Source of the DNA: a virus
Reading direction: 5' to 3' (one strand)
IMG/VR virus record: IMGVR_UViG_3300045988_105168
Location: 50,766-114,765 of that record
Length of the DNA: 64,000 nucleotides
Positions 29,955-47,900 of the stretch are shown here, piece after piece. Position numbers and translations under genes: made by a program. How positions within the stretch are numbered: the stretch's first letter is position 1; each line of letters starts with the position of its first letter. A model generated the notes under the pieces. It was given only the letters and a program-made list of their open reading frames with translations. It was not told the DNA's origin and made no database searches.

Positions 29955-29955
29955 A

Positions 29956-32637: not shown

Positions 32638-32670
32638 TTTTTCTACTATATAAAAAAGCCGTGCTATAAT
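32638..32670 (+). promoter_or_regulatory. phage promoter module P0 (TTCTAC box + 18 nt + TGcTATAAT)
   Basis: TTCTAC at 32641-32646; -10 at 32665-32670. Same architecture as 10 further copies. Reads into an ORF-free repeat region. Confidence 0.65.
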
Positions 32671-32727
32671 GTTTATAGATAAAAAAAGCAAGTATAAAAA
32701 AGCCGTTTTTATCATATAATATTAATA

Positions 32728-32763
32728 GAGCCGACACGAGCCACGAGCCGAACGAGCCGACAC
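32728..32763. repeat. four tandem GAGCC(N2-5)C units
   Basis: GAGCCGACAC, GAGCCAC, GAGCCGAAC, GAGCCGACAC. Confidence 0.8.
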
Positions 32764-32832
32764 GAACGAATGTTCACACGAACAAGTGTTTGTCAACCAA
32801 AAAAGGTTGACAGACTAACACGAACGAATGTT
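32760..32832. repeat. 15-bp direct repeat ACACGAACGAATGTT (2 copies) flanking an 8-bp-arm palindrome
   Basis: Repeat copies at 32760-32774 and 32818-32832. Palindrome TGTCAACC-AAAAAA-GGTTGACA at 32791-32812. Confidence 0.8.
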
Positions 32833-32844
32833 TGACACGAATAC

Positions 32845-32960
32845 ATAACACGGCATAGAGTTTTTGTGGGGAATTTTGCACGAGAGCATAACACGGCATA
32901 AAAAAGTTGTGGGGGAAATCGGCAGAATATAACACGAATTTAAAAAATCGTGGGGAAATT
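32845..32960. repeat. three ~42-bp direct repeats of the bipartite motif ATAACACG-N13-GTGGGG(G)AA
   Basis: ATAACACG at 32845, 32888 and 32929. GTGGGG at 32866, 32909 and 32950. The internal offset is 21 nt in all three. Lies immediately upstream of P1. Confidence 0.8.
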
Positions 32961-32966
32961 TCAAAA

Positions 32967-32999
32967 TTTTTCTACTATATGCAATTTATATGGTATAAT
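32967..32999 (+). promoter_or_regulatory. phage promoter module P1 (TTCTAC + 18 + TGgTATAAT)
   Basis: TTCTAC at 32970-32975; -10 at 32994-32999. Confidence 0.7.
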
Positions 33000-33058
33000 T
33001 AAAGCAGAAAAGGACATAATATAAGTAGAGCAACAAAAAAATAAAAAAAAGTTAAAAA

Positions 33059-33091
33059 AATTTCTACTATATCAAAAAGTTGTGGTATACT
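33059..33091 (+). promoter_or_regulatory. phage promoter module P2 (TTCTAC + 18 + TGgTATACT)
   Basis: TTCTAC at 33062-33067; -10 at 33086-33091. Confidence 0.65.
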
Positions 33092-33124
33092 AGAAGTGTA
33101 AAAAGCAAGGAAGAGGTGTTAAAA

Positions 33125-33340
33125 TTGTATAAAAACGAGATTAAAAAAGAATTACAAGCCATTTATAATAGCAATAAAAACATTGATAATGAATTAGTGA
33201 ATATTAAGGTTGCTATACATAATTTGGAGAAATTAGGTTGTAATACAAAAGACCTTGAAAAAATGCTTGATAACATTGGAATTGAATTTTATAAATTTAA
33301 AGTTGAGAATAAAGAAGTATTAAAGAATTGGAGAGTGTAA
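33125..33340 (+). CDS. hypothetical protein (first early-arm gene)
   Basis: Start moved to TTG 33125 (AAGGAAGAGG SD), because the track start at 33080 lies inside the P2 -10 region. Confidence 0.55.
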   Translation: MYKNEIKKELQAIYNSNKNIDNELVNIKVAIHNLEKLGCNTKDLEKMLDNIGIEFYKFKVENKEVLKNWRV

Positions 33341-33343
33341 ACT

Positions 33344-33628
33344 ATGAATAATAAAGAATATAGAACAAACTATGCTAAAAAATATAAATTAGAATTTGAG
33401 GACTATAACGGGTGGTGTAATAGGGACACTTGGTTAGTTATGCTATGGTTGAATAACGACCAAAACAACTACGAGGGTATAACAAGAATTATTAATAACA
33501 CGCACGAGTTAAAAGATTTGAGTGATATGCAATTATACGGCATTTTAAAAGACTTTCACTATGGGGACAAAATCAATTTTAATAGGGTTGATTTGGACGA
33601 GGTTAGATTTGGTTTAACTGAAAATTAA
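33344..33628 (+). CDS. hypothetical protein
   Basis: GGAGAG SD; co-oriented. Confidence 0.7.
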   Translation: MNNKEYRTNYAKKYKLEFEDYNGWCNRDTWLVMLWLNNDQNNYEGITRIINNTHELKDLSDMQLYGILKDFHYGDKINFNRVDLDEVRFGLTEN

Positions 33629-33646
33629 GCCAAAATCTAGCAGAAC

Positions 33647-33725
33647 GGAAAGAAATCACACACTATAAGGTTTTTGAAATACCTATAACGGAAAGCAATG
33701 GAAAGAAATCACGGAATATAAGGTT
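33647..33725. repeat. two 26-bp direct repeats GGAAAGAAATCAC..A.TATAAGGTT in a GGA-rich ORF-free gap
   Basis: Copies at 33647-33672 and 33700-33725 (period 53). The gap 33629-33781 has at least 7 GGA motifs and no promoter box. Confidence 0.75.
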
Positions 33726-33781
33726 ATGGAAAGCAGAGCCATAACACGAGCCGTGAAAAAGAACGGAAACGAGGGAAAATT

Positions 33782-33988
33782 ATGTTTGAAGATAAAAAAA
33801 TCACTATTGAAAAAGTAAAAGATTTAATTTATGCACTACAAAATGAATTTGATAATGAATTGGACTATGATTATACGAGTGAATATAAGGCAGAATTTAC
33901 GGAAACGGACTTTAATATTATGCTTGAATTTTTAGAAAGATTTGTTGGAAAATTTGAATTATCTATTGTAGAAGAATTAGAAGATTAA
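33782..33988 (+). CDS. hypothetical acidic protein
   Basis: GAGGGA SD. Confidence 0.7.
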   Translation: MFEDKKITIEKVKDLIYALQNEFDNELDYDYTSEYKAEFTETDFNIMLEFLERFVGKFELSIVEELED

Positions 33989-34001
33989 GAGGTGGAAAAC
34001 T

Positions 34002-34283
34002 ATGTTTGATTTAACTATAACACAAGAGGTTAACAAGTTATTAAAAGACATTAGAAAAGAATTAAAAAACAAGGGTTATAACAAAAGCACGAGCCGTACT
34101 AATAGATATATAGGCACAATGCACTTGAATTATACGACTGAATATTTTATTAAAGGCAACTTATTATTTGAAATTGAAAGAGATTTGAATAATAGCACTA
34201 TAACAACAAGACTATTCTATAACGGCACAAACGGAAAAGAAACAAAAGAAATAAGACTAGCAGACATTTTAAGTCTAGCATAA
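34002..34283 (+). CDS. hypothetical protein
   Basis: GAGGTGG SD. Confidence 0.7.
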   Translation: MFDLTITQEVNKLLKDIRKELKNKGYNKSTSRTNRYIGTMHLNYTTEYFIKGNLLFEIERDLNNSTITTRLFYNGTNGKETKEIRLADILSLA

Positions 34284-34300
34284 CAAAAGAGGTGGAAATT

Positions 34301-34729
34301 ATGATAGAAAGCAGATTAATGGAAATTTACGAGGGAATTTTTAAAGATAGCAAAATTGCAATAACAAAAAATAGTTTTAGTGGAGATAATGTTTTATGGG
34401 TACAACTATATCTAGCACAAAACGAGCAAGAAGAAATCAATGGTTATTTTGACAACGATATGTTCGGCATTATATTTAAAATAACAAAAACGGCAGAAGA
34501 TAACTATATAATGGAAAATAAACAAAATAGATACCTTGTAAAGCCGACAAATAAATATTTAGTATATGAAAGCAAAAAAGTTGCTTTTAGAAAAACACAA
34601 GGCAACGAGGACAAAATTATAACAACATTTAAAAAGTATGTGGAAAATCTACACAAGGCACTTGTAGAAGATTTAAAACAAGGCAACATACACGAAAATC
34701 ATATAACACTTTTAGAAAAAAAGATTTAG
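34301..34729 (+). CDS. hypothetical protein
   Basis: Start moved to ATG 34301; the track's GTG at 34292 is part of the GAGGTGG SD. Confidence 0.7.
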   Translation: MIESRLMEIYEGIFKDSKIAITKNSFSGDNVLWVQLYLAQNEQEEINGYFDNDMFGIIFKITKTAEDNYIMENKQNRYLVKPTNKYLVYESKKVAFRKTQGNEDKIITTFKKYVENLHKALVEDLKQGNIHENHITLLEKKI

Positions 34730-34731
34730 AA

Positions 34732-34764
34732 TTTTTCTACTATATCAATTTTATATGGTATAAT
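34732..34764 (+). promoter_or_regulatory. phage promoter module P3 (TTCTAC + 18 + TGgTATAAT)
   Basis: TTCTAC at 34735-34740; -10 at 34759-34764. Starts 2 nt after the upstream stop. Confidence 0.7.
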
Positions 34765-34796
34765 AATATTAAGAAAAAGGAAAAGAGGAACGGAAA

Positions 34797-34985
34797 ATGA
34801 AGATAGAAGAAATTAAAAACACAATAAAATCATTAGCAAGTAGTCAAGGGTTTTACGGCAGATTATTAGCAAGTATGGAAACAATGGAAGAAATGTTCCC
34901 ACAAGACTATGAAGAAGTTGTAAAAGAGTTAGAAAGCCAAAATTTTCAAAATGCAGTTGATTTAGTAATGTATTTTGAGTGTTAG
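34797..34985 (+). CDS. hypothetical protein
   Basis: AGAGGA SD. Confidence 0.7.
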   Translation: MKIEEIKNTIKSLASSQGFYGRLLASMETMEEMFPQDYEEVVKELESQNFQNAVDLVMYFEC

Positions 34986-34998
34986 GAGAGTGAAAACT

Positions 34999-35394
34999 AT
35001 GGAAAAATTTATTGAAGATATGACAAAAAGTTTAGAAAATATTGGAGCAACAAACATTAGTTTTAACACACACGAAATGAAAAAACATTTTAAAGCAGAT
35101 ACTATTGGAGCATTATTTGAAAGCACAAACGACTACTATATAACAATATCTTTAACGGACAACTATTGCTTATATATAGAGGGTTTAAACGAGGACTATG
35201 TATCATTAGTTAACAATTTTAAAGTAGAAGATATAAGACATTTAATGATAGAATTAAACGACTATAACGGCAACATTTGTATAACAATACAACATTATGC
35301 AGAATTACAAGGTGTAGGACTTGAAACAACTATTAACGACCTAAAAGAAAAAGTTTTAGACCTTGCAATTAATAAAAGTATTTTAAATGATTAA
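34999..35394 (+). CDS. hypothetical protein
   Basis: Start moved to ATG 34999 (AGGAGAG SD). Confidence 0.7.
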   Translation: MEKFIEDMTKSLENIGATNISFNTHEMKKHFKADTIGALFESTNDYYITISLTDNYCLYIEGLNEDYVSLVNNFKVEDIRHLMIELNDYNGNICITIQHYAELQGVGLETTINDLKEKVLDLAINKSILND

Positions 35395-35406
35395 TGGGGT
35401 GGAAAT

Positions 35407-35619
35407 ATGTATGTAATTTTTAATGAATATACGGACATTTACGACCATTTACAACTTGTAGACAACATTTGTTTTACAACCTATGAGAAAGCAGAAGAGT
35501 ATTTATTAAAAGGTGTAGAAAAATGGAAACACGGAGAATTAAAAAACGAGTATATAATATATAATTGTTATGTAGGCACAAGTACTTATATTATTGAAAA
35601 ACTTGAAATAATTTCATAA
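35407..35619 (+). CDS. hypothetical protein
   Basis: GGGGTGG SD. Confidence 0.7.
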   Translation: MYVIFNEYTDIYDHLQLVDNICFTTYEKAEEYLLKGVEKWKHGELKNEYIIYNCYVGTSTYIIEKLEIIS

Positions 35620-35652
35620 TTTTTCTACTATACGAAAATCTTATGATATAAT
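35620..35652 (+). promoter_or_regulatory. phage promoter module P4 (TTCTAC + 18 + TGaTATAAT)
   Basis: TTCTAC at 35623-35628; -10 at 35647-35652. Confidence 0.7.
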
Positions 35653-35678
35653 ATAGGTGTAAAGAGGAGGAAAGACCT

Positions 35679-35855
35679 ATGGAAAAATTAAAAGAATTAT
35701 TATTTGATTTATTTGATAACTACGAGGAATACGAGGACATTAGAGATAGTTTAAGAAGTTTAGCAAGTGATAACGAAATCACGGAGCAAGAATACGACAT
35801 AATTTTAGATAACTATGATAAATGGTTAGCAGAGTATGAAGAAAAAGAGGTGTAA
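35679..35855 (+). CDS. hypothetical acidic 58-aa protein (below the track cutoff)
   Basis: AGAGGAGG SD. Own translation: MEKLKELLFDLFDNYEEYEDIRDSLRSLASDNEITEQEYDIILDNYDKWLAEYEEKEV. Confidence 0.65.
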   Translation: MEKLKELLFDLFDNYEEYEDIRDSLRSLASDNEITEQEYDIILDNYDKWLAEYEEKEV

Positions 35856-35857
35856 AT

Positions 35858-36229
35858 ATGGAAATTAAAAAAATCATTTGTAAAAGTGGAAGAGAATATA
35901 ATATAGTAAATGAATATTGGGAAACAAGCCGTGCTTGGGGACATAAAAGCACACTTGTAGCACAATGGGGAGATATGGGGAGCAGAAAAGTAACATATCA
36001 AAATAGAACTTGGGAAAGTTATAAATATCAAACTTGTATGTATGGTTTATTAAGTAGCATTTTAGAAAATGATTTAAAAGACTATATAACACGAGAAAAA
36101 GAAAACAAGGGTATAACAAGACTTTCAAAAGAGATTAGAGCAGAATTAGAGCAAGAGTGGAATAACAACTCTTATACACAAGATTTAAAAGAAATACAAG
36201 AAAGAATTAGTAATAGAAATTTTGATTAA
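35858..36229 (+). CDS. hypothetical protein
   Basis: AGAGGTG SD. Confidence 0.7.
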   Translation: MEIKKIICKSGREYNIVNEYWETSRAWGHKSTLVAQWGDMGSRKVTYQNRTWESYKYQTCMYGLLSSILENDLKDYITREKENKGITRLSKEIRAELEQEWNNNSYTQDLKEIQERISNRNFD

Positions 36230-36241
36230 TGAGGTGTAAAT

Positions 36242-36463
36242 ATGAAAGACATTTACGATAACGGAGAAAAAGTTTTAGGTAGAATTTACGACCTAAAAGA
36301 ATATATATGCAGAAATTGTGAGGACTACGAGGAAGTCAAGGAAATAATTGAAGAATTAGAAAACTATGACGAGGACACAATAGCAGTAATTAATTATAGT
36401 AATGGTATGGGTTATTTAATAGATTATTTTACTATTAAAGATAAAATGGAAAAAGAGGTGTAA
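36242..36463 (+). CDS. hypothetical acidic protein
   Basis: GAGGTG SD. Confidence 0.7.
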   Translation: MKDIYDNGEKVLGRIYDLKEYICRNCEDYEEVKEIIEELENYDEDTIAVINYSNGMGYLIDYFTIKDKMEKEV

Positions 36464-36465
36464 TT

Positions 36466-36657
36466 ATGAGTGTAAAAGATTTAACAAGAGAGCAATTAAT
36501 TGAATTAAAGCAAAAATATTATACTGAAAGAAACGAAAATGTTAGTTATGGAGAATTAGCCGATATTGATAATTTAGTTAGTGATAATGAAATTTTTGAG
36601 GAATACGGACATATAACATTTGTAGAAGAGGACTTCTTTTGTATATGCAACAATTAA
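36466..36657 (+). CDS. hypothetical acidic protein
   Basis: AGAGGTG SD. Confidence 0.7.
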   Translation: MSVKDLTREQLIELKQKYYTERNENVSYGELADIDNLVSDNEIFEEYGHITFVEEDFFCICNN

Positions 36658-36917
36658 AAAATATTATGTATTTATTTGATACGAGCAATTTATACCTTGA
36701 ATTTAAATATAATAAAAGAGTGGCAAGGGCAAAAGGTACGACCGAAAAAATTATTACTTGTGATTATTATATTGTACCATTTAACAAGGAATTTGTGAGA
36801 TTTAACAATAGTATAAAATCATACGATACTATCAAGAATTTAAGAGCCGAAAAAGTATATTATCATACTGAATTAGAGGGTGTTGTTATTAGAATAAGAG
36901 AGTATTGGGAGAGGTAA
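36639..36917 (+). CDS. hypothetical protein (start uncertain)
   Basis: No clear SD; overlaps the upstream gene. Confidence 0.5.
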   Translation: MYMQQLKNIMYLFDTSNLYLEFKYNKRVARAKGTTEKIITCDYYIVPFNKEFVRFNNSIKSYDTIKNLRAEKVYYHTELEGVVIRIREYWER

Positions 36918-36919
36918 TT

Positions 36920-37261
36920 ATGAAAGCAAAAGACAAGTTTTTACTTAATTGTGATATATTTAAAAGAGAATTGGCAGATTTACAAGCCGAAATTGATTAT
37001 GCAGAAGATACGGAAATACACGGCACACTAGCATATATTGGAGCAAATTATAGTTATGAATTGGCAAACATTTGTTTTGGACTTGGTTATGCAACTTGGT
37101 TTTTTATGATAGGAGAGTATATTGGAGAGCCATTTGACTATGAAACATTAAAACAAGGTGTTTGTGATACTATTATATCAAACGAAGAAATTTGCAAGGA
37201 ATACACGGCAGAAGAAATTAATAAAATAAAAAATGAAATTTTAAATGCAAAAATTAATTAA
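36920..37261 (+). CDS. hypothetical protein
   Basis: Start moved to ATG 36920 (GGGAGAGG SD). Confidence 0.7.
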   Translation: MKAKDKFLLNCDIFKRELADLQAEIDYAEDTEIHGTLAYIGANYSYELANICFGLGYATWFFMIGEYIGEPFDYETLKQGVCDTIISNEEICKEYTAEEINKIKNEILNAKIN

Positions 37262-37294
37262 TTTTTCTACTATATCAAAAATATATGTTATAAT
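37262..37294 (+). promoter_or_regulatory. phage promoter module P5 (TTCTAC + 18 + TGtTATAAT)
   Basis: TTCTAC at 37265-37270; -10 at 37289-37294. Confidence 0.7.
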
Positions 37295-37323
37295 ATAGGT
37301 GTAAAGACAAAGGAGGACTATGT

Positions 37324-37671
37324 ATGAATAGTAAAGAAATAAAAGAGCAACAAACATTTTTAAATTGTTATAAGACATTAACCGACGAACAAAAACTAAA
37401 ATTAAAAGAGTTGAGTTTACGAGAAATGATTATGAGTTGTTTGGTATATGGAGAAGATATTTTTACAAGTGTTTGTATTAATGCTTGTAGTGAATATTAT
37501 CATAGACCTTATGCAGAAGAATATATTGATATATTGGGTTATGATAGGGTTATGGAAATCTATAACGACCAAAAAAATTATTTTGATACAAAATGCAGAG
37601 TTGAGAAAAATGTTTATACCGATTATGAGGGTTTAACATATAATAGTTTAATTGAGGAGGAATTGTTATGA
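37324..37671 (+). CDS. hypothetical protein
   Basis: AAGGAGGA SD. Confidence 0.7.
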   Translation: MNSKEIKEQQTFLNCYKTLTDEQKLKLKELSLREMIMSCLVYGEDIFTSVCINACSEYYHRPYAEEYIDILGYDRVMEIYNDQKNYFDTKCRVEKNVYTDYEGLTYNSLIEEELL

Positions 37672-38762
37672 GTTATGAAAAAGTAAAATGTATAACAAGA
37701 AAGCCAAAAGAGAATAAAATAATTATAACAAGTGCTTGTAATAATGTACGACCATTAACATTTGGAAAATGGGAATACGGAAAAGCAGATATGAGTTATA
37801 AAGAAAAAATGTTTTATTTATTAAAAGATATTAGTGGTGGAAATTTACAACTTAACAATAGTTGTTATGAGTGGAATTATGCAGTACTAAAAACAAGAGA
37901 TTATATGCAAGAAAAATATGGCAAGGAATATCATTTATACGATTTAGCCACTATGAAATATACTTCTTATTGTTTAGGAGAGCAAATAAGTAGCCGATAC
38001 ACTCCTATAACACAAACTGAAATAGAGAGTGGCAACTATAACTATATTTTAGAGTGGGAGAGTAAAGATAATAAAAGTAAAGTATATTATAGAGCCGAAG
38101 AATATAACAACGAGAAAGCAAGAGTTATGGAAGTATTGGAAGAATATTATAATGTATTTATTGGTTATTTAGAAGAAAAACACGAGGGAAAATACTATTT
38201 ATATAGTGAAACTTATGGTTATGTTAAGCCAAAAGGTACAAACGGCAGTTTTTACTATAATATGAGTAGCAGTTTAGTTGAAAATATGGACTACAAAAAA
38301 GCATATTGTTTAGCAAGAACTATTGGCAGAGATATTGAAATTGTAGCCGTTCCTAAAAGAGAATACAAGCCGACACAAAAACAAGTGGAAGAAAGCAAAC
38401 AAAGAATTGAATTGTTAGGTTTAGAGCCACGATTTAGTGAAAAATTATATATGAGTGATAGATATATGATAAGAGAGGTAAAAGATAAGGAAAAAGAACT
38501 AATCAAGGCAATAAATGAATTTGAGAAAGAATATAATGCTTATGTTTATCACATTGTGTATAATGATACTAATATAGGGCAATTATATACTATGTTATAT
38601 GTTAGTAGCCACGAAGAAGAGTGGGCAAGTGATAGAGCAGATATAAAAGAAAAACAATTATATGCTTATGTATGGAATAGAACTGATAATTATTGCAGTG
38701 AAATTGGTTTAGTAGGAATAGAACAAGTAGAACATTGCAATTTGTTAAAAAGAATTTTCTAA
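37668..38762 (+). CDS. hypothetical protein (364 aa)
   Basis: GAGGAGGA SD; no family recognised. Confidence 0.7.
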   Translation: MSYEKVKCITRKPKENKIIITSACNNVRPLTFGKWEYGKADMSYKEKMFYLLKDISGGNLQLNNSCYEWNYAVLKTRDYMQEKYGKEYHLYDLATMKYTSYCLGEQISSRYTPITQTEIESGNYNYILEWESKDNKSKVYYRAEEYNNEKARVMEVLEEYYNVFIGYLEEKHEGKYYLYSETYGYVKPKGTNGSFYYNMSSSLVENMDYKKAYCLARTIGRDIEIVAVPKREYKPTQKQVEESKQRIELLGLEPRFSEKLYMSDRYMIREVKDKEKELIKAINEFEKEYNAYVYHIVYNDTNIGQLYTMLYVSSHEEEWASDRADIKEKQLYAYVWNRTDNYCSEIGLVGIEQVEHCNLLKRIF

Positions 38763-38763
38763 A

Positions 38764-38795
38764 ATTTCTACTATACAAAATTGTTATGATATAAT
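38764..38795 (+). promoter_or_regulatory. phage promoter module P6 (TTCTAC + 18 + TGaTATAAT)
   Basis: TTCTAC at 38766-38771; -10 at 38790-38795. Confidence 0.7.
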
Positions 38796-38821
38796 TAGTA
38801 TGTAATGAGGAAGTGATAGTT

Positions 38822-39070
38822 ATGATTATGGAAATAAGAGCCATAAACACACTAAAATTAATTGATACACAAGAAATCAAAAGCAGAAGAAAATTTGATA
38901 AAATGTGTAAAAAATTAACAAAATTAGTACTAAAACACGACAAAAAGAGCCAAAAAGAGGGTAAAAACGAGGAATTTTTAATTAGAGTAAAAAAGAACTC
39001 TTATATAGTAAAAAGTGGCAGATATGGTTTTGTCGTAGGTATTAAGAAGGCAGAGAGCCGTTGGTTATAA
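38822..39070 (+). CDS. hypothetical basic protein
   Basis: Start moved to ATG 38822 (GAGGAAGTG SD). Confidence 0.65.
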   Translation: MIMEIRAINTLKLIDTQEIKSRRKFDKMCKKLTKLVLKHDKKSQKEGKNEEFLIRVKKNSYIVKSGRYGFVVGIKKAESRWL

Positions 39071-39078
39071 CACGGCAA

Positions 39079-39138
39079 ACAAAACTCTTATGAGTTTTGT
39101 GAGTAGCATTATGCTCCGTTCCGTGTAGTGCTATTCAC
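39079..39138 (+). other. structured ORF-free segment (stem-loops) inside the operon
   Basis: Perfect 9-bp stem ACAAAACTC-TTAT-GAGTTTTGT at 39079-39100. An imperfect 11-bp inverted repeat follows: GTGAGTAGCAT (39099-39109) / GTGCTATTCAC (39128-39138). No T-run and no promoter box. Confidence 0.4.
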
Positions 39139-39179
39139 AAAGCCCATAAGGGTAATATAACACGAGGAGGAATAAAGAA

Positions 39180-39440
39180 ATGATTAAGGAAGTTAAAACA
39201 AAGAAAAATGTAATTATGGTAAATAAAAATCACGAAAGAGGTTATGAAAGTAAACAAGGTGTAATGATTATAGAGGAAGAAAATGGCAAAAAACATATTC
39301 TTGACCTTACAAGTAATACCGATATATCTACAAGTGATTATATTGATATAGCAGATACTAAAAAGACAAAAGAAGAAATATTATTTAAAAACATTATGTT
39401 AGATACTGAACGATTAAAAAAGTTAAGTGAGGGGAAATAA
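39180..39440 (+). CDS. hypothetical protein
   Basis: GAGGAGGA SD. Confidence 0.7.
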   Translation: MIKEVKTKKNVIMVNKNHERGYESKQGVMIIEEENGKKHILDLTSNTDISTSDYIDIADTKKTKEEILFKNIMLDTERLKKLSEGK

Positions 39441-39441
39441 T

Positions 39442-39771
39442 ATGAATAGAGATTATTGTATTGTTATTGATAATGGTGGTAATGTTTATAAAGTAAAGCA
39501 ACAAGCAATGATACAATGTTTTGATAAAATAATTGCACCATTAGATATAATTAGTCAAGTTGGCAATGAAAGTGAAATGGAGATAGCACACGAAATTGGT
39601 TTAGATTATGTAAAACAACTTGAAAGTGGTTTAATGAGTGCATTAGACGAATTATCTATATCAAGTGGTGGAGAATTTGATTATTATGATAAATTACGAG
39701 AATTAACGGGTTTTGGAAATTATCAAGCATTAGACTTTTTAGATATGTTTAGTGATAACGAGGGAGAATAA
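39442..39771 (+). CDS. hypothetical protein
   Basis: Start moved to ATG 39442 (GAGGGG SD). Confidence 0.7.
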   Translation: MNRDYCIVIDNGGNVYKVKQQAMIQCFDKIIAPLDIISQVGNESEMEIAHEIGLDYVKQLESGLMSALDELSISSGGEFDYYDKLRELTGFGNYQALDFLDMFSDNEGE

Positions 39772-39773
39772 CT

Positions 39774-40013
39774 ATGTATAATGGTAATATGCAGATATTA
39801 ATATATGAAAATGTAAATTATACAAAAGTAGGAAGTATGCAGTCAATTTCATTAGCACCGATAGGGGCAACATTAGAATTAAATGGCAAGGCATATAGAA
39901 TAATTGATTATATTATATTAGAGCAATGTACTACTTTATATATGGTTGTAAAACTTATTTCAAAGCACGAATATAGTGCATACGAGGGTTTAAAGAATAG
40001 AGGTGTAATATAA
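39774..40013 (+). CDS. hypothetical protein
   Basis: GAGGGAGA SD. Confidence 0.7.
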   Translation: MYNGNMQILIYENVNYTKVGSMQSISLAPIGATLELNGKAYRIIDYIILEQCTTLYMVVKLISKHEYSAYEGLKNRGVI

Positions 40014-40183
40014 TGACAAAAGAACAATTAATGAATAATTTATATGAGATTATAGCAGAACATATTGAGGAATTGGCATACGAAAACGGAGCAAGTATTT
40101 ATTTGACTGATAAAAACGAATTATATATTGATTTGAACGATACCGAACAAGTGTTCGTGTTGAAAGCAGAGGTGGAAAAGTAA
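40013..40183 (+). CDS. hypothetical acidic 56-aa protein (below the track cutoff)
   Basis: TAATG overlaps at both ends. Own translation: MTKEQLMNNLYEIIAEHIEELAYENGASIYLTDKNELYIDLNDTEQVFVLKAEVEK. Confidence 0.6.
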   Translation: MTKEQLMNNLYEIIAEHIEELAYENGASIYLTDKNELYIDLNDTEQVFVLKAEVEK

Positions 40184-40431
40184 TGAATACACAATTAACT
40201 ATGCAAAGCATTTTAGATTTAGCATTAAAATTAGAAGAACAAGGACTAAATCTATCTAAATTAAAGGTATATTTAGGGGACGACGACGAATTAAATGGGG
40301 TACACAATGCTTGGTATTGTGAACTTGTTGAAAACGACGGAGAAGAAGAAAATAATTGTATAGTTGACTTAATTAATGAAAATATAGGCAACTATGTAGA
40401 AGATAACGAAAAATTTATTTTAATTAGTTAG
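40183..40431 (+). CDS. hypothetical acidic protein
   Basis: GAGGTGG SD. Confidence 0.7.
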   Translation: MNTQLTMQSILDLALKLEEQGLNLSKLKVYLGDDDELNGVHNAWYCELVENDGEEENNCIVDLINENIGNYVEDNEKFILIS

Positions 40432-40445: not shown

Positions 40446-40478
40446 TTTTTCTACTATATGAGATTTATGTGTTATAAT
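40446..40478 (+). promoter_or_regulatory. phage promoter module P7 (TTCTAC + 18 + TGtTATAAT)
   Basis: TTCTAC at 40449-40454; -10 at 40473-40478. Conserved ATAAGTGTAAAAAG follows the -10. Confidence 0.7.
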
Positions 40479-41070: not shown

Positions 41071-41086
41071 AAGAGGAGGTAATTTT

Positions 41087-42972: not shown

Positions 42973-43235
42973 AAAATTGTGTAGATTATCATATTTTAAA
43001 AGCAGAATTAACAAACGAACAATTAGATATGATAGATAAGGTAATAAAACATTATATTGCTTATGCAGAAAAGTATGACGACGGAGAAATTGACATTATA
43101 GGAGATTATACTAGGTTATATGGCAATGGTTATGTATTAAATTGGTATGAGGGTTTAATGACGACCGAAGAGTTTATAGCAGAAGTAAAAGACGGCAATG
43201 TATATGTTGGAATATTAGATTTTAGGAGGTTATAA
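42963..43235 (+). CDS. hypothetical protein
   Basis: GGAGGAG SD. Confidence 0.7.
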   Translation: MELKNCVDYHILKAELTNEQLDMIDKVIKHYIAYAEKYDDGEIDIIGDYTRLYGNGYVLNWYEGLMTTEEFIAEVKDGNVYVGILDFRRL

Positions 43236-43237
43236 TT

Positions 43238-43513
43238 ATGAGTATATTAAAAAGTAAATTTATAGAAAATTTTAATATGGAACGAATAGCACTTGATTTA
43301 ATGGACTTAATTGAAGATATTGATATGACTTGTGAAGTATTAGATAATTTTGTTTACGAAAAATTTAACGAAGAATTTATGTATGGAGAAATTTATGACA
43401 TATTTAAAGACGAAATGAGTAAAGAAGATTTACAATGTTTGTTAGAAGATATGGGACACGATTTTGTTGATTTAGACGAATTAGACGAAGAAGAACGAGA
43501 AAAATATTATTAG
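43238..43513 (+). CDS. hypothetical acidic protein
   Basis: AGGAGGT SD. Confidence 0.7.
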   Translation: MSILKSKFIENFNMERIALDLMDLIEDIDMTCEVLDNFVYEKFNEEFMYGEIYDIFKDEMSKEDLQCLLEDMGHDFVDLDELDEEEREKYY

Positions 43514-43524
43514 GAGGTGTAATA

Positions 43525-44424
43525 ATGAATAAAGAAATATGCTTTAATTGTGGAAAAACAAAAGAGGACTATGAAAGTGCATATTGTGATAAATGTTGGG
43601 AAGAGGAACAAAAAAGACTTAATACTAGGAAATTAACAATTAAAAATAAAGATAATAACAAATCAATAGAATTAGATTTTGATAGTTTAGATTTTGGTTT
43701 TGGAATTGGAGATTATTTTTATAATGGAAATTGTACGGGTAGCCAAATAGGTTTTTGTTGGAACGAAGAACTAGGGCAAGAATATGTAGACCATATTTTT
43801 ATGACCTTATATGTAGGCAATGAAGAAGAAAGCGACTTATACAATTTAAATACTACATTAAAGAATTTAGATTTAAGTAAGCCATTAGAAATAGTTTTAT
43901 CAAATATGGACTATGCAATATTTACAATGTGGTATGACGAAACACATTGGGTTGGTTTTCATTATTATACTGACGAAGAAATAGCAGAAAGAGAAAAATT
44001 AAAAGATAGTGTAATTATTACATTAGACAAATCATTACTAAATAATCAAGATATGGACTTCTTTCATTATGGTTATAGTTATGAACTAGGTGTATGCAAA
44101 TATGGTAGCATTTGGTGTTGTAGCCGTGGAGAGTTAAAATGTGAGTATACTGACGGAGATATAAATACACGAAACTATGACGATATAATTAGATACTATG
44201 TTAGAAATAACGACGAATACTATAAAGCAGTTGAAAGTGGTAAATTATACTTTATGCTAGGTAATTGGTTTGAAATTGAATTTATTGATAATGAGGGTAA
44301 TTATGTAGATAATATTTATGACGATACATTTGGAAGTATTGGAGAGTGCATTGATACATTACTACACGACCTACATAATGACGAAAAATTTATTGAAAAG
44401 TTTTTAGAAAATTCTACCATATAA
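43525..44424 (+). CDS. hypothetical protein with N-terminal zinc finger
   Basis: AGGAGGTG SD; CFNCGK...CDKC. Confidence 0.7.
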   Translation: MNKEICFNCGKTKEDYESAYCDKCWEEEQKRLNTRKLTIKNKDNNKSIELDFDSLDFGFGIGDYFYNGNCTGSQIGFCWNEELGQEYVDHIFMTLYVGNEEESDLYNLNTTLKNLDLSKPLEIVLSNMDYAIFTMWYDETHWVGFHYYTDEEIAEREKLKDSVIITLDKSLLNNQDMDFFHYGYSYELGVCKYGSIWCCSRGELKCEYTDGDINTRNYDDIIRYYVRNNDEYYKAVESGKLYFMLGNWFEIEFIDNEGNYVDNIYDDTFGSIGECIDTLLHDLHNDEKFIEKFLENSTI

Positions 44425-44441
44425 AAATCTTATGGTATAAT
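44409..44441 (+). promoter_or_regulatory. phage promoter module P8 (TTCTAC + 18 + TGgTATAAT; box overlaps the upstream stop codon)
   Basis: TTCTAC at 44412-44417 (box variant TTCTACCATAT); -10 at 44436-44441. Confidence 0.65.
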
Positions 44442-44488
44442 ATAATTGTAAAACAAAGAAACATTAATAAAATTAAGGAGGAAAAGAA

Positions 44489-44980
44489 ATGTTTAAAGTT
44501 TATTACAAAGGCAATGTAGTTGCAGAATATGAAACAAAAGAAAGTTGTGGTACTTATATTCAAGAAGAGTTAAGATACAACAAAGAAATGAGAAGAGAAG
44601 ATTTTGAGGTGTATGAGTTAGTAGAAAATACTTATGGAGATAATATTAACGATTACTACGAAGAAGAAGTTGAAGAGTTGTTTGACGAAGAATATGAAGA
44701 TAACGACGATAATGAAGAAGATTATGAGCCATTGGCAACATTAGTTGGTGTTGGTGTTAAAGATACCGAAAATGGTTTAAAGATTATGTTAGTAGGTACT
44801 GACGATAATGTATTAGGAGAATATGAATTAGTAATGAATATTAGTGGTTATAAAGAAATACAATTATTCAATATTTGTTATGAAATTTCTAAAAATGTTA
44901 AAGATTTATATTATAATGTTAGAAGAATACCTACACAAGAAGAAGTGTTAAATGTAGTTAGAGAAGTAATGGTAAAATAG
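44489..44980 (+). CDS. hypothetical highly acidic protein
   Basis: AAGGAGGA SD; D/E/Y-rich central segment. Confidence 0.7.
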   Translation: MFKVYYKGNVVAEYETKESCGTYIQEELRYNKEMRREDFEVYELVENTYGDNINDYYEEEVEELFDEEYEDNDDNEEDYEPLATLVGVGVKDTENGLKIMLVGTDDNVLGEYELVMNISGYKEIQLFNICYEISKNVKDLYYNVRRIPTQEEVLNVVREVMVK

Positions 44981-45016
44981 CCATTACTCTCTATTACAAT
45001 AATAAGGAGGAAAATT

Positions 45017-45622
45017 ATGTATCAAGAACTTATAGATAAATGCAGACAAGCATATAAGAATAACAATATAGTTAGTGCATATCATTATTGGGAGCAAATT
45101 CACGAGTTGTTATCTAATAAACTAGAAGAGTGTAAAGAGGACGGAGAACAAAGGTGGAAGATATATGCAGAATATCACGATAGTATAATGCAAATTCCTA
45201 ATCAAGAAGTATATGATATTACTGATTATGGAAAAAGAATAGCATACGAACAAATGTTTAGAGAAAAATTTGAAAATATTAGTTTAAGCAAATTAAGTGG
45301 TGGCGAAGATTTAGAAGTATTAGAAGAGTTTTGTAATTTTTATGAGTGGCAACCCGTCAATACGGGAAGTGGGTTTAATATATTAGACCTACAATTAAAT
45401 CAACTTGTAGAGGACGAAGATTATCAAACATTTAGTGAACTTGTAAATAGAATAGTAGGGAGAGCCATAGATTATTTTAGGGACGAGCAAGAGTGGGAAA
45501 ATGACGACGACGCAATTAATTATGGTTTAGAATTATATAATATAGCAGTTAGATATAAAGACGGCACAAAATGGGAAGAAAGTTGGTTAGAAACTTTCAA
45601 AAAAGAATTAGAAAATTTTTAA
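45017..45622 (+). CDS. hypothetical protein
   Basis: AAGGAGGA SD. Confidence 0.7.
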   Translation: MYQELIDKCRQAYKNNNIVSAYHYWEQIHELLSNKLEECKEDGEQRWKIYAEYHDSIMQIPNQEVYDITDYGKRIAYEQMFREKFENISLSKLSGGEDLEVLEEFCNFYEWQPVNTGSGFNILDLQLNQLVEDEDYQTFSELVNRIVGRAIDYFRDEQEWENDDDAINYGLELYNIAVRYKDGTKWEESWLETFKKELENF

Positions 45623-45623
45623 A

Positions 45624-45656
45624 TTTTTCTACTATATGAGATTTGTGTGATATAAT
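45624..45656 (+). promoter_or_regulatory. phage promoter module P9 (TTCTAC + 18 + TGaTATAAT)
   Basis: TTCTAC at 45627-45632; -10 at 45651-45656. ATAAGTGTAAAAAG follows the -10. Confidence 0.7.
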
Positions 45657-45681
45657 ATAAGTGTAAAAAGGAGGAAGAACT

Positions 45682-45909
45682 ATGAATTGGTTATACGATT
45701 TAACACAAGACGAATTAGTAGATTATGTTTTAGTATTATTGGACGAAATTGATAGTTTGGAATTAAAATTAAAACAAGAGCAACAAAGATTAACCGATAA
45801 AATTAACAAAGATTTTGAGGACAACAAGAAAATGGTGGCAAATATATTTAAGGAGGTAGTTAAAAATGACACCGAGAGAAAAATTACAAGTAATAGAAGA
45901 GAAGATTAA
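45682..45909 (+). CDS. hypothetical coiled-coil protein
   Basis: AAGGAGGA SD. Confidence 0.65.
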   Translation: MNWLYDLTQDELVDYVLVLLDEIDSLELKLKQEQQRLTDKINKDFEDNKKMVANIFKEVVKNDTERKITSNRRED

Positions 45910-46135
45910 ATTACTTAATGAAAGTGTATTAAAGTATAAGAATTGGAAACTTGCATATATTAATAGAGGGGCAAATAATTATTGTTTAACTATTGTATTA
46001 AAGAAAAAGGAATTATTTAGTGGAAAATTCAATACATACGATAGTGTATTAAGTGCATTAGAATTATTAGAATTTATGTTTAGCAGAGCATTAGACGAAT
46101 TAGATAAGTCAAGTGTTAAGAGCAAGAAAGATTAG
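45866..46135 (+). CDS. hypothetical protein
   Basis: AAGGAGGT SD; overlaps the upstream ORF by 44 nt. Confidence 0.65.
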   Translation: MTPREKLQVIEEKIKLLNESVLKYKNWKLAYINRGANNYCLTIVLKKKELFSGKFNTYDSVLSALELLEFMFSRALDELDKSSVKSKKD

Positions 46136-46146
46136 GAGGGAATATT

Positions 46147-46521
46147 ATGAAATATAAATACGAAGATATTAACAACCTAGAAGAGTTAAAAGATATTTTA
46201 TTAAAAGAGATTAACGAAAAAGCAGATAATAAGAAGTTTATAAAAATGGCATTAAGTTATCTACAAGAGGTATTAGAAGAATTAAGCGACCCTAACGAAC
46301 ATATTGCAAAATGTAATGAAATAATAGCAGAAGTAGTTGAATTTCTTAATGCTAGTCAATGTGATATGATTTGTCCTATGTGTCAAGAAAGTTGTATGAT
46401 ACACGAAGAATATAACGGAACACACATTTATATTTGTGAACCTTGTCCGTTTGTTGGTTTTGAACTTGTTGAAACAAAAGACCGAGAAAATATGATTAAA
46501 TGGTTGGAGGAAAGAAAATAA
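46147..46521 (+). CDS. hypothetical zinc-binding protein
   Basis: AGGAGGGA SD; CPMCQESC...CEPCPF. Confidence 0.7.
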   Translation: MKYKYEDINNLEELKDILLKEINEKADNKKFIKMALSYLQEVLEELSDPNEHIAKCNEIIAEVVEFLNASQCDMICPMCQESCMIHEEYNGTHIYICEPCPFVGFELVETKDRENMIKWLEERK

Positions 46522-46751
46522 TGAAAGTTAAAAGTAATAATATAGGTAAGTGTCCGTTTTGTAATAACGAGGGGACATTAGATTATGGAGCAGTACAATT
46601 TGAGGGAGAAATGTGCTACTTCCCGTGGCAATGTTTAGAGTGCAAACACGAGGGAGAAGAGTGGTACTCTATGGAATTTATAGGACATAATGTTATAGGC
46701 GAAAACGGAGATAATATTGAAATAGAAGATAAAATGATAGAGGAGGAATAG
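46521..46751 (+). CDS. zinc-ribbon miniprotein
   Basis: Start moved to ATG 46521 (GGAGGA SD; TAATG overlap). CPFCNN...CLECKH. Confidence 0.7.
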   Translation: MKVKSNNIGKCPFCNNEGTLDYGAVQFEGEMCYFPWQCLECKHEGEEWYSMEFIGHNVIGENGDNIEIEDKMIEEE

Positions 46752-46754
46752 TTT

Positions 46755-47063
46755 ATGTATATATTATATGAAAGTTATACTGACGAGTGTATGAATAGCA
46801 AAGATTTAACAATGAATACTAAAATCATTGCTTTATATAACACGGAAGAACAAGCAGTTGAGGGGTATAATAATCATTTAGACAAAACTATAACACAAAG
46901 TGATAAAGAGTACGACTGGTTTACACAAGAAATTAGTGTAGACTTGTTAGAAAATGCAAACATAATTAATGCTTGTAGAGTTTATAATGGTGGCATTGAG
47001 GTTTGCGAAGATTGTTATTTAATAGCATTAGAAAAAATGGAGGTGTTTGATAATGCAGAATAA
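46755..47063 (+). CDS. hypothetical protein
   Basis: GAGGAGGA SD. Confidence 0.7.
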   Translation: MYILYESYTDECMNSKDLTMNTKIIALYNTEEQAVEGYNNHLDKTITQSDKEYDWFTQEISVDLLENANIINACRVYNGGIEVCEDCYLIALEKMEVFDNAE

Positions 47064-47232
47064 TATTATAATACAAAATGTTTTAAATGATATTTGCAAG
47101 ATTATTGCAGATATTAATAAATTACAAGAAGATAATTTTATTGAAGATTTAGATTATATTAAATTATATTTAGAGGACGCAGTAAATTATAAAGAAATTC
47201 AAGCAGAAAAAGAGGTGGTAAATAATGACTGA
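47053..47232 (+). CDS. hypothetical small protein
   Basis: Start moved to ATG 47053 (GGAGGTG SD). Confidence 0.65.
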   Translation: MQNNIIIQNVLNDICKIIADINKLQEDNFIEDLDYIKLYLEDAVNYKEIQAEKEVVNND

Positions 47233-47596
47233 TAAGGAAATATTAGCAGAATTAAAAAGAAGTTGGGAATATTTATATGATATTAGAGAAAATGGTTGTA
47301 TAGACCATTGTACGGGGCAAATGAAAAAGAACTTAATTGATAAGTTAGAAATTGCTAAATATAATATTGAAGATATTTATTATGAGTTTTACAAAACACT
47401 AAATAAAGAAGATTTAAGAGTTAAATCATTAGAGCATAAAGTTGACGGAGATAAAGTATATATTTGTCGTTGTGTTGACGGAGATTACGAAGTAGGAGAA
47501 GAATTACATTGTATGACTTGTTGCGACCTAGAATATTATTGGTATGAAGATAGCGATTTTTTAGACGAATATGAGGAGGACGACGACAATGAATAA
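47225..47596 (+). CDS. hypothetical Cys-rich acidic protein
   Basis: AGAGGTGG SD. Confidence 0.7.
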   Translation: MTDKEILAELKRSWEYLYDIRENGCIDHCTGQMKKNLIDKLEIAKYNIEDIYYEFYKTLNKEDLRVKSLEHKVDGDKVYICRCVDGDYEVGEELHCMTCCDLEYYWYEDSDFLDEYEEDDDNE

Positions 47597-47867
47597 TATG
47601 ACCGAAGAATATAAGAAAGCAGTCAATGATTATGTTAGGAAAGATTTTAACTCTATGAGTTTTGATAATTGTGCATTTTGTTATGATTTAAAGGAAATTT
47701 GTGGAGAAAAAGAGCAGTTAGAAACGGCAATGACTTGTTTACAAGGACTTATAGGTTGGTGTGAAGTATGTTTTAATAATGAAATTGAAGTAGAAGACTA
47801 TAAATCATTAAAACAAGCATACAATTTATTAGAAAAAGTACACGAAAGTTATGAAAAAAATTACTAA
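47589..47867 (+). CDS. hypothetical Cys-rich protein
   Basis: Start moved to ATG 47589 (GAGGAGGA SD). Confidence 0.65.
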   Translation: MNNMTEEYKKAVNDYVRKDFNSMSFDNCAFCYDLKEICGEKEQLETAMTCLQGLIGWCEVCFNNEIEVEDYKSLKQAYNLLEKVHESYEKNY

Positions 47868-47900
47868 AATTTCTACTATATAGGAATTATGTGATATAAT
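47868..47900 (+). promoter_or_regulatory. phage promoter module P10 (TTCTAC + 18 + TGaTATAAT)
   Basis: TTCTAC at 47871-47876; -10 at 47895-47900. ATAAGTGTAAGGAG follows the -10. Confidence 0.7.

Follow-up and report, generated by a model that had tools for sequence, protein, structure and literature searches.

Middle promoters of phage T4 that carry a MotA box combine a good −10 element, often extended, with a conserved box near −30 at fixed spacing, and they have no −35; the MotA box itself reads (a/t)(a/t)(a/t)TGCTT(t/c)A. T4-type phages are also said, in work by Arbiol and colleagues from 2010, to carry mobile promoter cassettes (PeSL), for which we know of no description of a type-specific box. 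In Bacillus phage SPβ, about 10 early promoters carry an asymmetric element, SPBRE, that is bound by the master repressor MrpR (PMC10516654). Cluster A mycobacteriophages have motif sets that are "similar but not identical" and that track the repressor (PMC6550527), and stoperators are described as sites throughout the genome at which elongation is terminated (PMC9283540).

We analyzed a 64-kb stretch of DNA, referred to as the window, in which a promoter module built around TTCTAC recurs. The window is from an uncultivated human-gut phage of the SPβ/c-st kind. The yonO, yonF, yonG, yonJ and yonV genes of SPβ were matched by window genes in tblastn searches, with the yonF/yonG/yonJ/yonV set and YonO in SPβ order next to a divergent early arm, and the terminase is 53% identical to that of c-st. 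The YonO-like single-subunit RNA polymerase that marks the phage as SPβ/c-st-like is encoded at 17605–20355 on the minus strand and has a Pfam RdRP match at 1e-17. By analogy with SPβ, this enzyme would transcribe the late genes and leave the plus-strand arm to the host polymerase. All sources were free-standing metagenomic contigs of 100–118 kb, and the early arm is strongly mosaic. The TTCTAC modules head the small-gene early arm: they start right at the divergent control region and span the small-ORF arm, which in SPβ is host-transcribed and early. An initial annotation of this DNA had likened the modules to activator-dependent middle promoters of the MotA kind, a label that finds no support in their position, where SPβ-like phages have their host-RNAP early arm.

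A scan of the window for TTCTAC-N18-TATAAT returned 10 exact plus-strand matches (modules 1, 2 and 4 to 11, each starting at the first coordinate given below) and one extra match at 33062, so that the −10 hexamer is TATAAT in 10/11 copies and TATACT in 1/11. With one mismatch allowed there were 15 matches, compared with 2.0 expected from 100 shuffles and a shuffle maximum of 6. The initial annotation had listed eleven modules, and all 11 were recovered where it placed them, on the plus strand; in every one the gap is 18 nt and TG occupies −15/−14. Module 1 (32641–32670; box TTCTACTATA, N, TGC-TATAAT) is part of the divergent control region and is directed into non-coding DNA that contains LexA-like boxes, and the small ORF found behind module 2 (32970–32999) in relatives is absent here. 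Module 3 (33062–33091), the copy with TATACT, heads ORFs 33080–34729, and is followed by module 4 (34735–34764) before ORFs 34797–35619, module 5 (35623–35652) before ORFs 35679–37261, module 6 (37265–37294) before ORFs 37324–38762 and module 7 (38766–38795) before ORFs 38813–40431. Module 8 (40449–40478) heads SprT-like and PcfJ-like genes in a row of ORFs reaching 44424. Module 9 (44412–44441) has the box variant TTCTACCATA, module 10 (45627–45656) heads ORFs 45682–47867, and module 11 (47871–47900), the final copy, stands before about 13 kb of genes in a nearly unbroken row, as far as 61.3 kb.

The modules are fitted tightly between genes. Seven of the 11 begin 3–17 nt past a stop codon, the distance from the upstream ORF end to TTCTAC being 3–5 nt at modules 4, 5, 6, 7, 10 and 11 and 17 nt at module 8. 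At module 9, ORF 43525–44424 extends into the box, which bears out the overlap that had been claimed for one copy. A simple scan found no plus-strand terminator-like sites between 32.6 and 48 kb, as the initial annotation had also held for the spaces between units. The boxes are confined to 32.6–47.9 kb, which is the early arm's first 15 kb, and no further module copy occurs in the 10 kb beyond the window's right end, for which an identical contig was read.

The module consists of two halves and reaches from an A/T tract of about 14 nt upstream to an initial transcribed sequence of about 12 nt downstream. The box lies at approximately −40 to −26, where it replaces the −35, and its length can be given as 11 bases or as an asymmetric 10–13 bp. 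The exact 10-mer TTCTACTATA is restricted to modules in a search of the window, where each box lies 18 nt from a −10 and orphan boxes outside promoters showed no excess. Across 21 copies (11 from the window and 10 from its closest relative), T-15 and G-14 were invariant, T-17 was present in 20/21 and position −16 was A or G in all. Because −36 to −27 is also invariant save one base in these copies while the spacer from −25 to −18 varies freely, the box is, on this pattern, under selection and not merely shared by descent. In about two thirds of copies the −10 is followed by ATA(A/G)GTGTAAA, a motif reported earlier for several. We also aligned the box with TTGACA as a degenerate −35 and rejected both placements: TTCTAC at 18 nt fits 2/6 positions, and TCTACT at 17 nt fits 3/6 and lacks the TG of TTG. 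Box types B and C of the relatives, described below, resemble TTGACA no better.

We found that the downstream half has a far wider distribution than the box. The TATAAT −10 also holds in about 100 modules of relatives, and the −10 half with ATAAGTGTAAA is joined to canonical TTGACA in dozens of unrelated IMG/VR phage contigs. The −10 half with TTGACA occurs in this window as well and in a distant relative (L111), whose early promoters have canonical TTGACA. By its distribution, T(A/G)TGnTATAAT with ATAAGTGTAAA behind it is a host sigma-A signal of a generic kind. With a perfect extended −10 in essentially every copy, together with the A/T tract, the core promoter looks as if it could function unaided. 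Gut Firmicute phages have ordinary strong early promoters for sigma-A (TTGACA-17-TRTGnTATAAT-ATAAGTGTAAA) with an identical −10, TRTG, start region and upstream A/T tract, and like the modules they stand in multiple uniform copies before small early genes; however, they have a canonical −35 whereas the modules have a private box. A strong host-RNAP class with a conserved start, which the initial annotation offered as an alternative, thus accounts for the −10 half, which is generic with TTGACA in many unrelated gut-phage contigs, but leaves the box unexplained.

As that annotation had also noted, the same phage has textbook TTGACA-17 promoters, located near 21.55 kb and 30.5 kb (both strands), at 61273 and at 63712. 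Those at 21553–21617 are back-to-back sigma-A promoters without a box, one on each strand: the minus-strand promoter is TTGACA-17-TGTTATAAT and leads the NT5C/dNMP kinase/YonO operon, and the plus-strand promoter is TTGACA-17-TGATAGAAT. On the plus strand, a TTGACA-17-TAGAAT promoter with TG (61273–61301) precedes a kinase/HD gene, and a perfect TTGACA-17-TGnTATAAT promoter (63712–63740) precedes a tRNA array. Since perfect TTGACA joined to an extended −10 of this kind occurs both in this window and in the distant relative, the earlier proposal that the modules form a promoter class of their own, and are not promoters with a degenerate −35, is supported by these comparisons.

Among relatives, the box changes while its place does not. 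A tally of about 100 unique modules from 16 loci yielded at least six box types: type A (TTCTACTATA) in 26 modules, type B (TACTTCCC) in 39, type C (AAGTCCTAGAT) in 25, types E, F and G in 3–4 each, and type D in one. Related phages thus have differing invariant boxes at the same register; spacing is constant within each type, the diagnostic word starting at a single coordinate, and T-35, C-34 and, a few bases further downstream, a TA are found in every type. Across the 16 loci most genomes have one box type and a few are mosaic, one of them (L173/L174) with five modules of type A, one of B and one of C, and another (L114) with eight of B and one of D. Because the box at this site differs between related phages, it is probably read by a phage-made protein and not by the host polymerase. 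The box types recombine into one genome, which indicates shared hosts and so a reader that would not be a host protein.

We next consider which protein this might be. Pfam and PHROG scans of the 118 ORFs of the 64-kb window, outside which about 40% of the genome lies, detected no homologue of a sigma factor, MotA/AsiA or MrpR, and tblastn against SPβ and c-st found no homologue of YopR (MrpR) or YopQ in the window. The ORF at 52042–52314 encodes its only clear helix-turn-helix protein, and a divergent gene of 193 aa gave a confident model without a DNA-binding match. A XerD-like recombinase at 54032–54910 is the sole recombinase-fold protein of the window; it is an intact enzyme and unrelated to YopR.

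Starting from the observed module anatomy, host-type −10 half, type-specific selected box and early-arm location, we infer that a protein binds the box, that it is of phage origin and that it represses. We tentatively favor a reading in which the box serves as operator for a type-specific repressor and is set into early promoters that lack a −35. Each module would be an early promoter for the host primary sigma factor, working through the Gram-positive extended −10 (T-R-T-G-n-TATAAT), the upstream A/T tract and the generic start region, with the −35 hexamer swapped for an asymmetric 10–13 bp box. A phage-encoded protein is predicted to bind this box, with a specificity that would vary by phage type. 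Bound at −40 to −26, this protein would take the place that sigma region 4 needs and shut all early operons together, which could serve to keep a carrier or lysogenic state or to turn early genes off. Such a system would be a functional counterpart of SPBRE/MrpR of SPβ.

The two systems share a YonO late polymerase, a divergent early arm and an asymmetric element that recurs about 10 times at the promoters of early operons (11 copies here), always oriented with transcription. They differ in that the SPBRE sequence, AAATACAAAAAATATGTAT, is unrelated to the box, and in that MrpR (YopR, a repressor that has the recombinase fold but lacks the catalytic residues) has no homologue in the window. SPBRE also varies in its position relative to the −10 and leaves the −35 in place, whereas the box replaces the −35 at one register; among the SPBRE copies that we read from SPBc2, those of yonP and yorE lie inside the core promoter. 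Stoperators resemble the box copies as many asymmetric sites in short intergenic gaps, with one orientation to transcription and a motif that varies among related phages. However, stoperators occur on both genome arms and mostly outside promoters while the boxes are all in promoters, and a repressor of the gp71 type of Cluster A phages was not found in the window. PeSLs are similar in arrangement, being repeated early-promoter cassettes on either side of small variable ORFs where the genome is mosaic, but have a stem-loop terminator and a normal promoter.

Several findings count against a repressor. The window searches identified no repressor, the sources are all free-standing contigs, and the YonO operon has a perfect box-less promoter, so that a box-binding repressor alone would not silence that operon. 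In addition, about 100 copies keep one exact register and orientation, which an activator or sigma-like reader would need and a simple occluding repressor would not, although the upstream A/T tract could instead hold the register; SPBRE positions vary in SPβ, and here there is no excess of orphan boxes outside promoters. Positive control is the main alternative, possible but doubtful, in which a phage activator, a MotA/AsiA-like sigma-remodelling pair or a sigma-like subunit would replace the missing −35 contact, and the modules would be a delayed-early or middle class, turned on by something made from the canonical promoters that have no box. The good −10, the lack of a −35 and the box near −30 at fixed spacing are as in T4 middle promoters, and in about 100 copies the box, centered near −31 in fixed register and orientation, lies exactly at the place expected for sigma region 4 or MotA. 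A usable −35 is absent from every type, and an immediate-early factor could come from the perfect box-less promoters (21.55 kb on both strands and 30.5 kb). In a mosaic genome, a promoter with a foreign box could also stay silent without harm, since no terminators block read-through. The likeness of the box to that of T4 is one of position alone, since TTCTACTATA, TACTTCCC, AGTCCTAGAT and other box words differ from the MotA box, and here the host is Gram-positive and the location is the early arm, which in SPβ is host-transcribed and early. MotA boxes are conserved among T4 relatives, whereas these boxes diversify between close relatives, and six or more specificities among close relatives are known behavior of immunity operators; to us the rapid diversification looks more like the latter. 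The core promoter is also near-optimal already. The initial annotation had proposed a phage specificity factor or sigma appropriation: a factor is still the best reading of related phages with other boxes at the same register, but the 64 kb showed no MotA, AsiA or sigma domain by Pfam or PHROGs. That the boxes form a promoter code of a phage factor family retargeting host sigma-A polymerase, with at least six orthogonal specificities, strikes us as rather unlikely. If true, T4 sigma appropriation would have its Gram-positive equivalent here, and each phage type in a widespread human-gut lineage would own a private early/middle promoter set.

Readings without a dedicated factor must explain why the box is so fixed. 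Firmicute promoters can manage with an extended −10 that has TRTG, together with an A/T tract, and the modules might be strong −35-less extended −10 host promoters whose box is kept for DNA shape or weak sigma/alpha contacts, the differences between phages reflecting different hosts or drift with homogenization. The T-35, C-34 and downstream TA common to all types, and the nearness of type G (GCGACAA) to a real −35, are consistent with this. We nevertheless hold it to be improbable, because 10–13 invariant positions reach −26, where sigma makes no base contacts, beside free spacers, because differing types occur within one genome and in recombining phages, and because the same phage uses canonical TTGACA elsewhere. 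Modules that act mainly as recombination linkers shuffling small-gene cassettes, or a box that acts as RNA in read-through transcripts, would suit the highly mosaic early arm and the foreign-type modules of mosaic genomes, for example the type B module of L173, which heads the same gene row as such modules do in type B phages. Every module but the first is also transcribed from upstream, as there are no terminators. Yet recombination or gene conversion would homogenize the spacers too, and only the box, TRTG and −10 are fixed; module 1 has a box although no plus-strand transcription reads into it; and the constant distance to the −10 points to a promoter role at the DNA level. This makes such explanations scarcely credible, and a linker role is best seen as a side effect and not the function.

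The divergent control region holds further conserved elements. Three LexA (Cheo-box)-like sites, CGAACnnnnGTTYG, lie at 32763–32834, 90–160 nt downstream of module 1, and are kept in relatives of every box type. Together with the intact XerD-like recombinase, these conserved sites are hints of a non-lytic state. The LexA-like stretch includes the inverted repeat TTGTCAACC-N6-GGTTGACA (32790–32812). Between modules 1 and 2, three direct repeats of the form ATAACACGr...GTGGGGAAAT (32845–32962, plus strand) are likewise conserved in relatives.

The pattern TTCTAC-N18-TATAAT has 10 exact matches on the plus strand, and with the copy at 33062, whose -10 reads TATACT, these make up the eleven promoter modules (box, 18-nt gap and TG-extended -10) that the initial annotation placed from 32641 to 47871, with every coordinate correct. 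Allowing one mismatch gives 15 matches where 2.0 are expected and shuffles (n = 100) reach at most 6, and the 10-mer TTCTACTATA is found nowhere in the 64 kb outside the modules. We compared the 11 copies in an alignment that also included 10 copies of the closest relative (n = 21). The box TTCTACTATA occupies -36 to -27 and does not vary in these 21 copies except for a single base at 44412, where the box variant is TTCTACCATA. Position -26 is T or C, positions -24 to -20 are A-rich, and the spacer varies freely at -25 and -19/-18. Further downstream, T-15 and G-14 are fixed, as had been described, 20 of 21 copies have T-17, a purine fills -16, and TATAAT is fixed in the aligned copies, 33062 apart; the reported continuation ATA(A/G)GTGTAAA follows the -10 in about two-thirds of them. 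Upstream of the box T-46, T-45, A-41 and A-40 are almost constant, and this A/T tract falls within the end of the preceding ORF. The stop codon lies 3-5 nt from TTCTAC in six copies and 17 nt from it at 40449, and one ORF overlaps the box. A simple scan of the plus strand from 32.6 to 48 kb found no terminators, in agreement with the earlier description, and a search of the 10 kb to the right of the window, on an identical contig, found a tRNA array and no additional modules.

The modules had been proposed to be a distinct promoter class. They are real and form such a class; because they differ from canonical sigma-A promoters in having no qualifying -35, they are not full members of the canonical class. 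The canonical promoters that had been reported alongside them are present as well, box-less and with an extended -10: back-to-back promoters on both strands at 21.55 kb, one of which heads the NT5C / dNMP kinase / YonO operon, promoters on both strands at ~30.5 kb, and single promoters at 61273 and at 63712, the last a perfect match that precedes the tRNAs. We therefore conclude that TTGACA is read by the polymerase of this phage's host.

The downstream half of the module, the -10 and start region, is generic and not peculiar to this phage. Searching IMG/VR with TGnTATAAT-ATA(A/G)GTGTAAA returned 55 stretches on ~45 contigs of varied sizes and GC contents, most with a canonical TTGACA 17 nt 5′ of the unit, and a single locus often has 5-18 uniform copies. 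The unit formed by the -10 and ATAAGTGTAAA is thus a general signature of strong promoters in gut Firmicute phages, and it includes T-R-T-G-n-TATAAT, the known Gram-positive '-16' extended -10. Several unrelated IMG/VR phage contigs (L143, L121/L135/L162 and L160/L141) carry early promoters in multiple uniform copies that share this -10 and start region and have odd upstream words of their own, among them ACAGCAAGAC (11 copies), AGTG(C/A)AATATA and, in a further set, TTTACA preceded by TTTCAT. It may be that private boxes at the -35 position are widespread.

Its genes show that the window is phage DNA. Among the minus-strand genes at 1-21.5 kb are those for a portal and a large terminase, the latter with 53% identity to that of Clostridium phage c-st and 30% to SPbeta YonF. 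The ORF at 17605-20355 (minus strand; Pfam RdRP, 1e-17) encodes a 916-aa homologue of YonO, the RdRP-related single-subunit RNA polymerase of SPbeta; it aligns with SPbeta YonO and with the split YonO of c-st, and homologues of YonG, YonJ and YonV are present in SPbeta order. The modules occupy the plus-strand arm of dozens of small ORFs that begins at a divergent control region at ~32.5 kb. In SPbeta the late operon is transcribed by YonO and the other induced genes are YonO-independent (PMC5467207); by its position, the module-bearing arm would be the host-transcribed early arm.

A near-identity search of GenBank phages with the 16.5-kb region gave no matches, and the comparison with c-st was too distant to help, its matches being limited to terminase, YonG, YonO and a weak one for ORF 16826-17611. 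Searches for relatives with the YonV-like protein and with the recombinase alignment also returned nothing useful. ENA and Logan assemblies contain hundreds of variants of the YonO protein (81-99% identity) on contigs of 100-118 kb, indicative of a widespread lineage of uncultivated YonO phages of ~110-118 kb; two contigs of 231,820 and 235,477 bp, about twice that length, may be two-genome assemblies. The samples with a named source (the OPCO contig, a Hadza sample and a 'gut metagenome' record) are all human-gut. With its hundreds of YonO variants the lineage is common in human-gut metagenomes, and it has no cultured member.

Relatives retrieved through homologues of a 364-aa early protein (37668-38762) and a 193-aa protein (31560-32141) have an identical module skeleton and another box. 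Our tally of ~100 unique modules over 16 loci contains at least six box types, each with a fixed register. Type A, that of the window, is TTCTACYATA starting at -36 (26 unique modules), type B is ACTTCCS at -38 (39) and type C is AGTCCTA at -37 (25). The rarer types are D (GTTCTAAATA, -37, one module), E (TTTACACCT, -39, four), F (TTTCTCRWA with an upstream TTTAG, -38, four) and G (GCGACAA, -36, three). The diagnostic word has a single start coordinate in each type, with zero spacing variants across the tally. Most genomes carry one type throughout, and some are mosaic: in L173 and L174, which come from two samples, a B and a C module accompany five of type A; L114 adds a single D to eight B modules; and F and G occur together in L184, four and three times respectively. 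A more distant relative from a Hadza gut sample, L111 (49% identity in the 364-aa protein), is box-less, and TTGACA promoters head its early arm. Its region 2235-4278, 5′ of a canonical early promoter, is 2 kb of non-coding DNA crowded with ~20-nt repeats (aaccgttagtaattacaaacgat...) and a C/A-rich tract. The exact module pattern gave 26 single matches in 185,579 reference genomes, all chance or coding, with no multi-copy genome, and revealed no host or prophage; in IMG/VR and metagenomes the only true relative it found was the human-gut contig OPCO01000028.1. A literature search on the box words yielded nothing relevant.

Because the adjoining spacer has diverged and the box has not, the box is under purifying selection within each genome. 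Phages that differ in their box recombine and therefore have hosts in common. No box type keeps the TTG of the -35, and the box reaches -26, past all that sigma region 4 reads. Taken together, a selected box, different words in host-sharing phages and the reach to -26 make a phage-encoded sequence-specific protein, co-diversified with its sites, the simplest candidate for what recognizes the box (hereafter the reader). That the box has no dedicated factor at all is improbable, and that the modules serve mainly as recombination linkers or RNA elements seems to us more improbable still.

We tentatively favor the box as the operator of a type-specific phage repressor acting on early host sigma-A promoters. 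The modules would run as host sigma-A promoters on the extended -10 and the A/T tract, and a putative repressor bound to the box, from -40 to -26, would exclude polymerase from all early operons at once. We lean to this reading because SPbeta has a homologous architecture, because the boxes have diversified, because there are hints of a non-lytic state and because the core promoter is strong, apparently near-optimal without help. SPbeta carries its asymmetric repeated operator element, SPBRE, at approximately ten early promoters, where it is bound by the master repressor MrpR (PMC10516654), and at SPbeta yonP and yorE SPBRE sits between a TAGACA -35 and the -10. The boxes of close relatives are similar and not identical, and such diversification is documented for immunity operators, for example Cluster A stoperators (PMC6550527). 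The hints of a non-lytic state are conserved LexA-like boxes and an intact recombinase. Against a repressor, none was found among the 118 ORFs of the window, we saw no evidence of lysogeny, and the promoter of the YonO operon is box-less. The absolutely fixed register is also what an activator or sigma-like reader would demand, although the A/T tract upstream could hold the box in place equally well. That register suits the main competing explanation, on balance an unlikely one, of positive control by a factor that is made from the box-less promoters and supplies the missing -35 contact, as T4 MotA does. The initial annotation had drawn this parallel, and its interpretation is supported in part: its distinct promoter class stands, and Pfam and PHROG scans of the 118 window ORFs found no sigma domain, MotA or AsiA.

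Our search for the reader used Pfam and PHROG scans of these 118 ORFs, with ~40% of the genome lying outside the window. Besides the absence of sigma domain, MotA and AsiA, no MrpR-like or Cro/CI-type repressor was detected in them, the sole exception being a 90-aa protein with an N-terminal helix-turn-helix (52042-52314) within the operon of the last module. YopR (MrpR) and YopQ have no homologues in the window; c-st has both. The 118-aa protein at 36905-37261 is a weak lead as a candidate reader: a homologue occurs in L011, a type A locus, but not in the type B and C loci compared, the protein has no domain match, and L170 and L173 each carry a 117-aa gene at the corresponding position. A 58-aa protein seen only with type A (35679-35855) was rejected because L173, with mostly type A modules, does not have the gene. 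There was no support for the 193-aa gene divergent from module 1, whose product is ~50% identical between types A and B and whose AlphaFold model (pLDDT 90) matches only uncharacterized viral-protein domains and nothing in the PDB. Host factors such as Spo0A were rejected because the box differs among recombining phages. On L185, ~9.5 kb to the right of the window, a 152-aa protein (19835-20293, minus strand) has a weak Ros/MucR zinc-finger match and is a possible DNA-binding regulator.

A XerD-like tyrosine recombinase is encoded at 54032-54910 (plus strand) behind a TTGACA promoter of its own (53978). The enzyme is intact, with every catalytic residue aligned to XerD, is unrelated to YopR and is kept even in the box-less L111; its role is likely dimer resolution or integration. 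Box types B and C are similar to the left dif arm of B. subtilis, ACTTCCTAGAA, and we considered the boxes as Xer/dif-like arms read by this recombinase. This was rejected, as the window has no dif-like site and L111 has the intact recombinase without the boxes.

The module system belongs to none of SPBRE/MrpR, stoperators, P1-type dispersed operators or MotA boxes, because the sequences differ and the defining proteins were not found in the window. Under the repressor reading the box would work like the first three of these, and under positive control it would resemble the MotA boxes of T4. Unlike both SPBRE and stoperators, every box here is fixed to a -10 in one register and replaces the -35. 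Newly added here are the phage group, the generic and private halves of the module, the at least six fixed-register box types, the mosaics and the LexA-like boxes. The result is a readable regulatory code, an early arm under a class of promoters whose -35 has been exchanged for a phage-private word, and the SPBRE/MrpR idea would be extended beyond Bacillus. Association of box type with gene alleles across hundreds of contigs should point to the reader. Whether repressor or activator acts on them, at least six naturally orthogonal boxes on an identical core promoter could serve Firmicute synthetic biology.

The control region holds three LexA (Cheo-box)-like sites, CGAACnnnnGTTYG, at 32763-32834, 90-160 nt 3′ of module 1, and this cluster is conserved among relatives of every box type. 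A perfect site at 40144-40157, inside ORF 40013-40183, is likewise conserved, and another, at 16794-16807, occupies the intergenic gap 3′ of the YonO gene, a gap that might contain a late promoter. Together these sites suggest that the SOS response feeds into phage control. The non-coding DNA that separates modules 1 and 2 contains, at 32845-32962, three ~40-nt direct repeats (ATAACACGr ... GTGGGGAAAT) with related repeats in all relatives; they could act as iterons or a partition site, or belong to an RNA.

To the left of the control region, a conserved 36-aa ORF (MFNLLLSMLCWNAF..., with a basic C-terminus) at 30576-30686 (plus strand) has a canonical promoter of its own (TTGACA-17-TATAGT, 30508), a terminator at 30678 and, in relatives, a 36-37 aa gene call; its product could be a small toxin or signaling peptide. 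From this gene to a bidirectional terminator (31515-45), ~0.8 kb of G-rich non-coding DNA (30700-31520) has a counterpart in L011 and no Rfam match. On the minus strand, ~20 small genes at 24800-30434 stand behind a canonical promoter at 30488, with a GC content of 0.33-0.37 against 0.27-0.30 around them, and the cluster looks like an exchangeable module whose gene content differs between relatives. Rfam on the window called a single tRNA at its end and nothing else. The window stops within the first member of a tRNA array, which comprises 16 tRNA genes and a tmRNA-like call (63945-64000 and L185 10571-19712) and lies behind the perfect sigma-A promoter and the gene for a polynucleotide kinase/HD protein (61326-62297).
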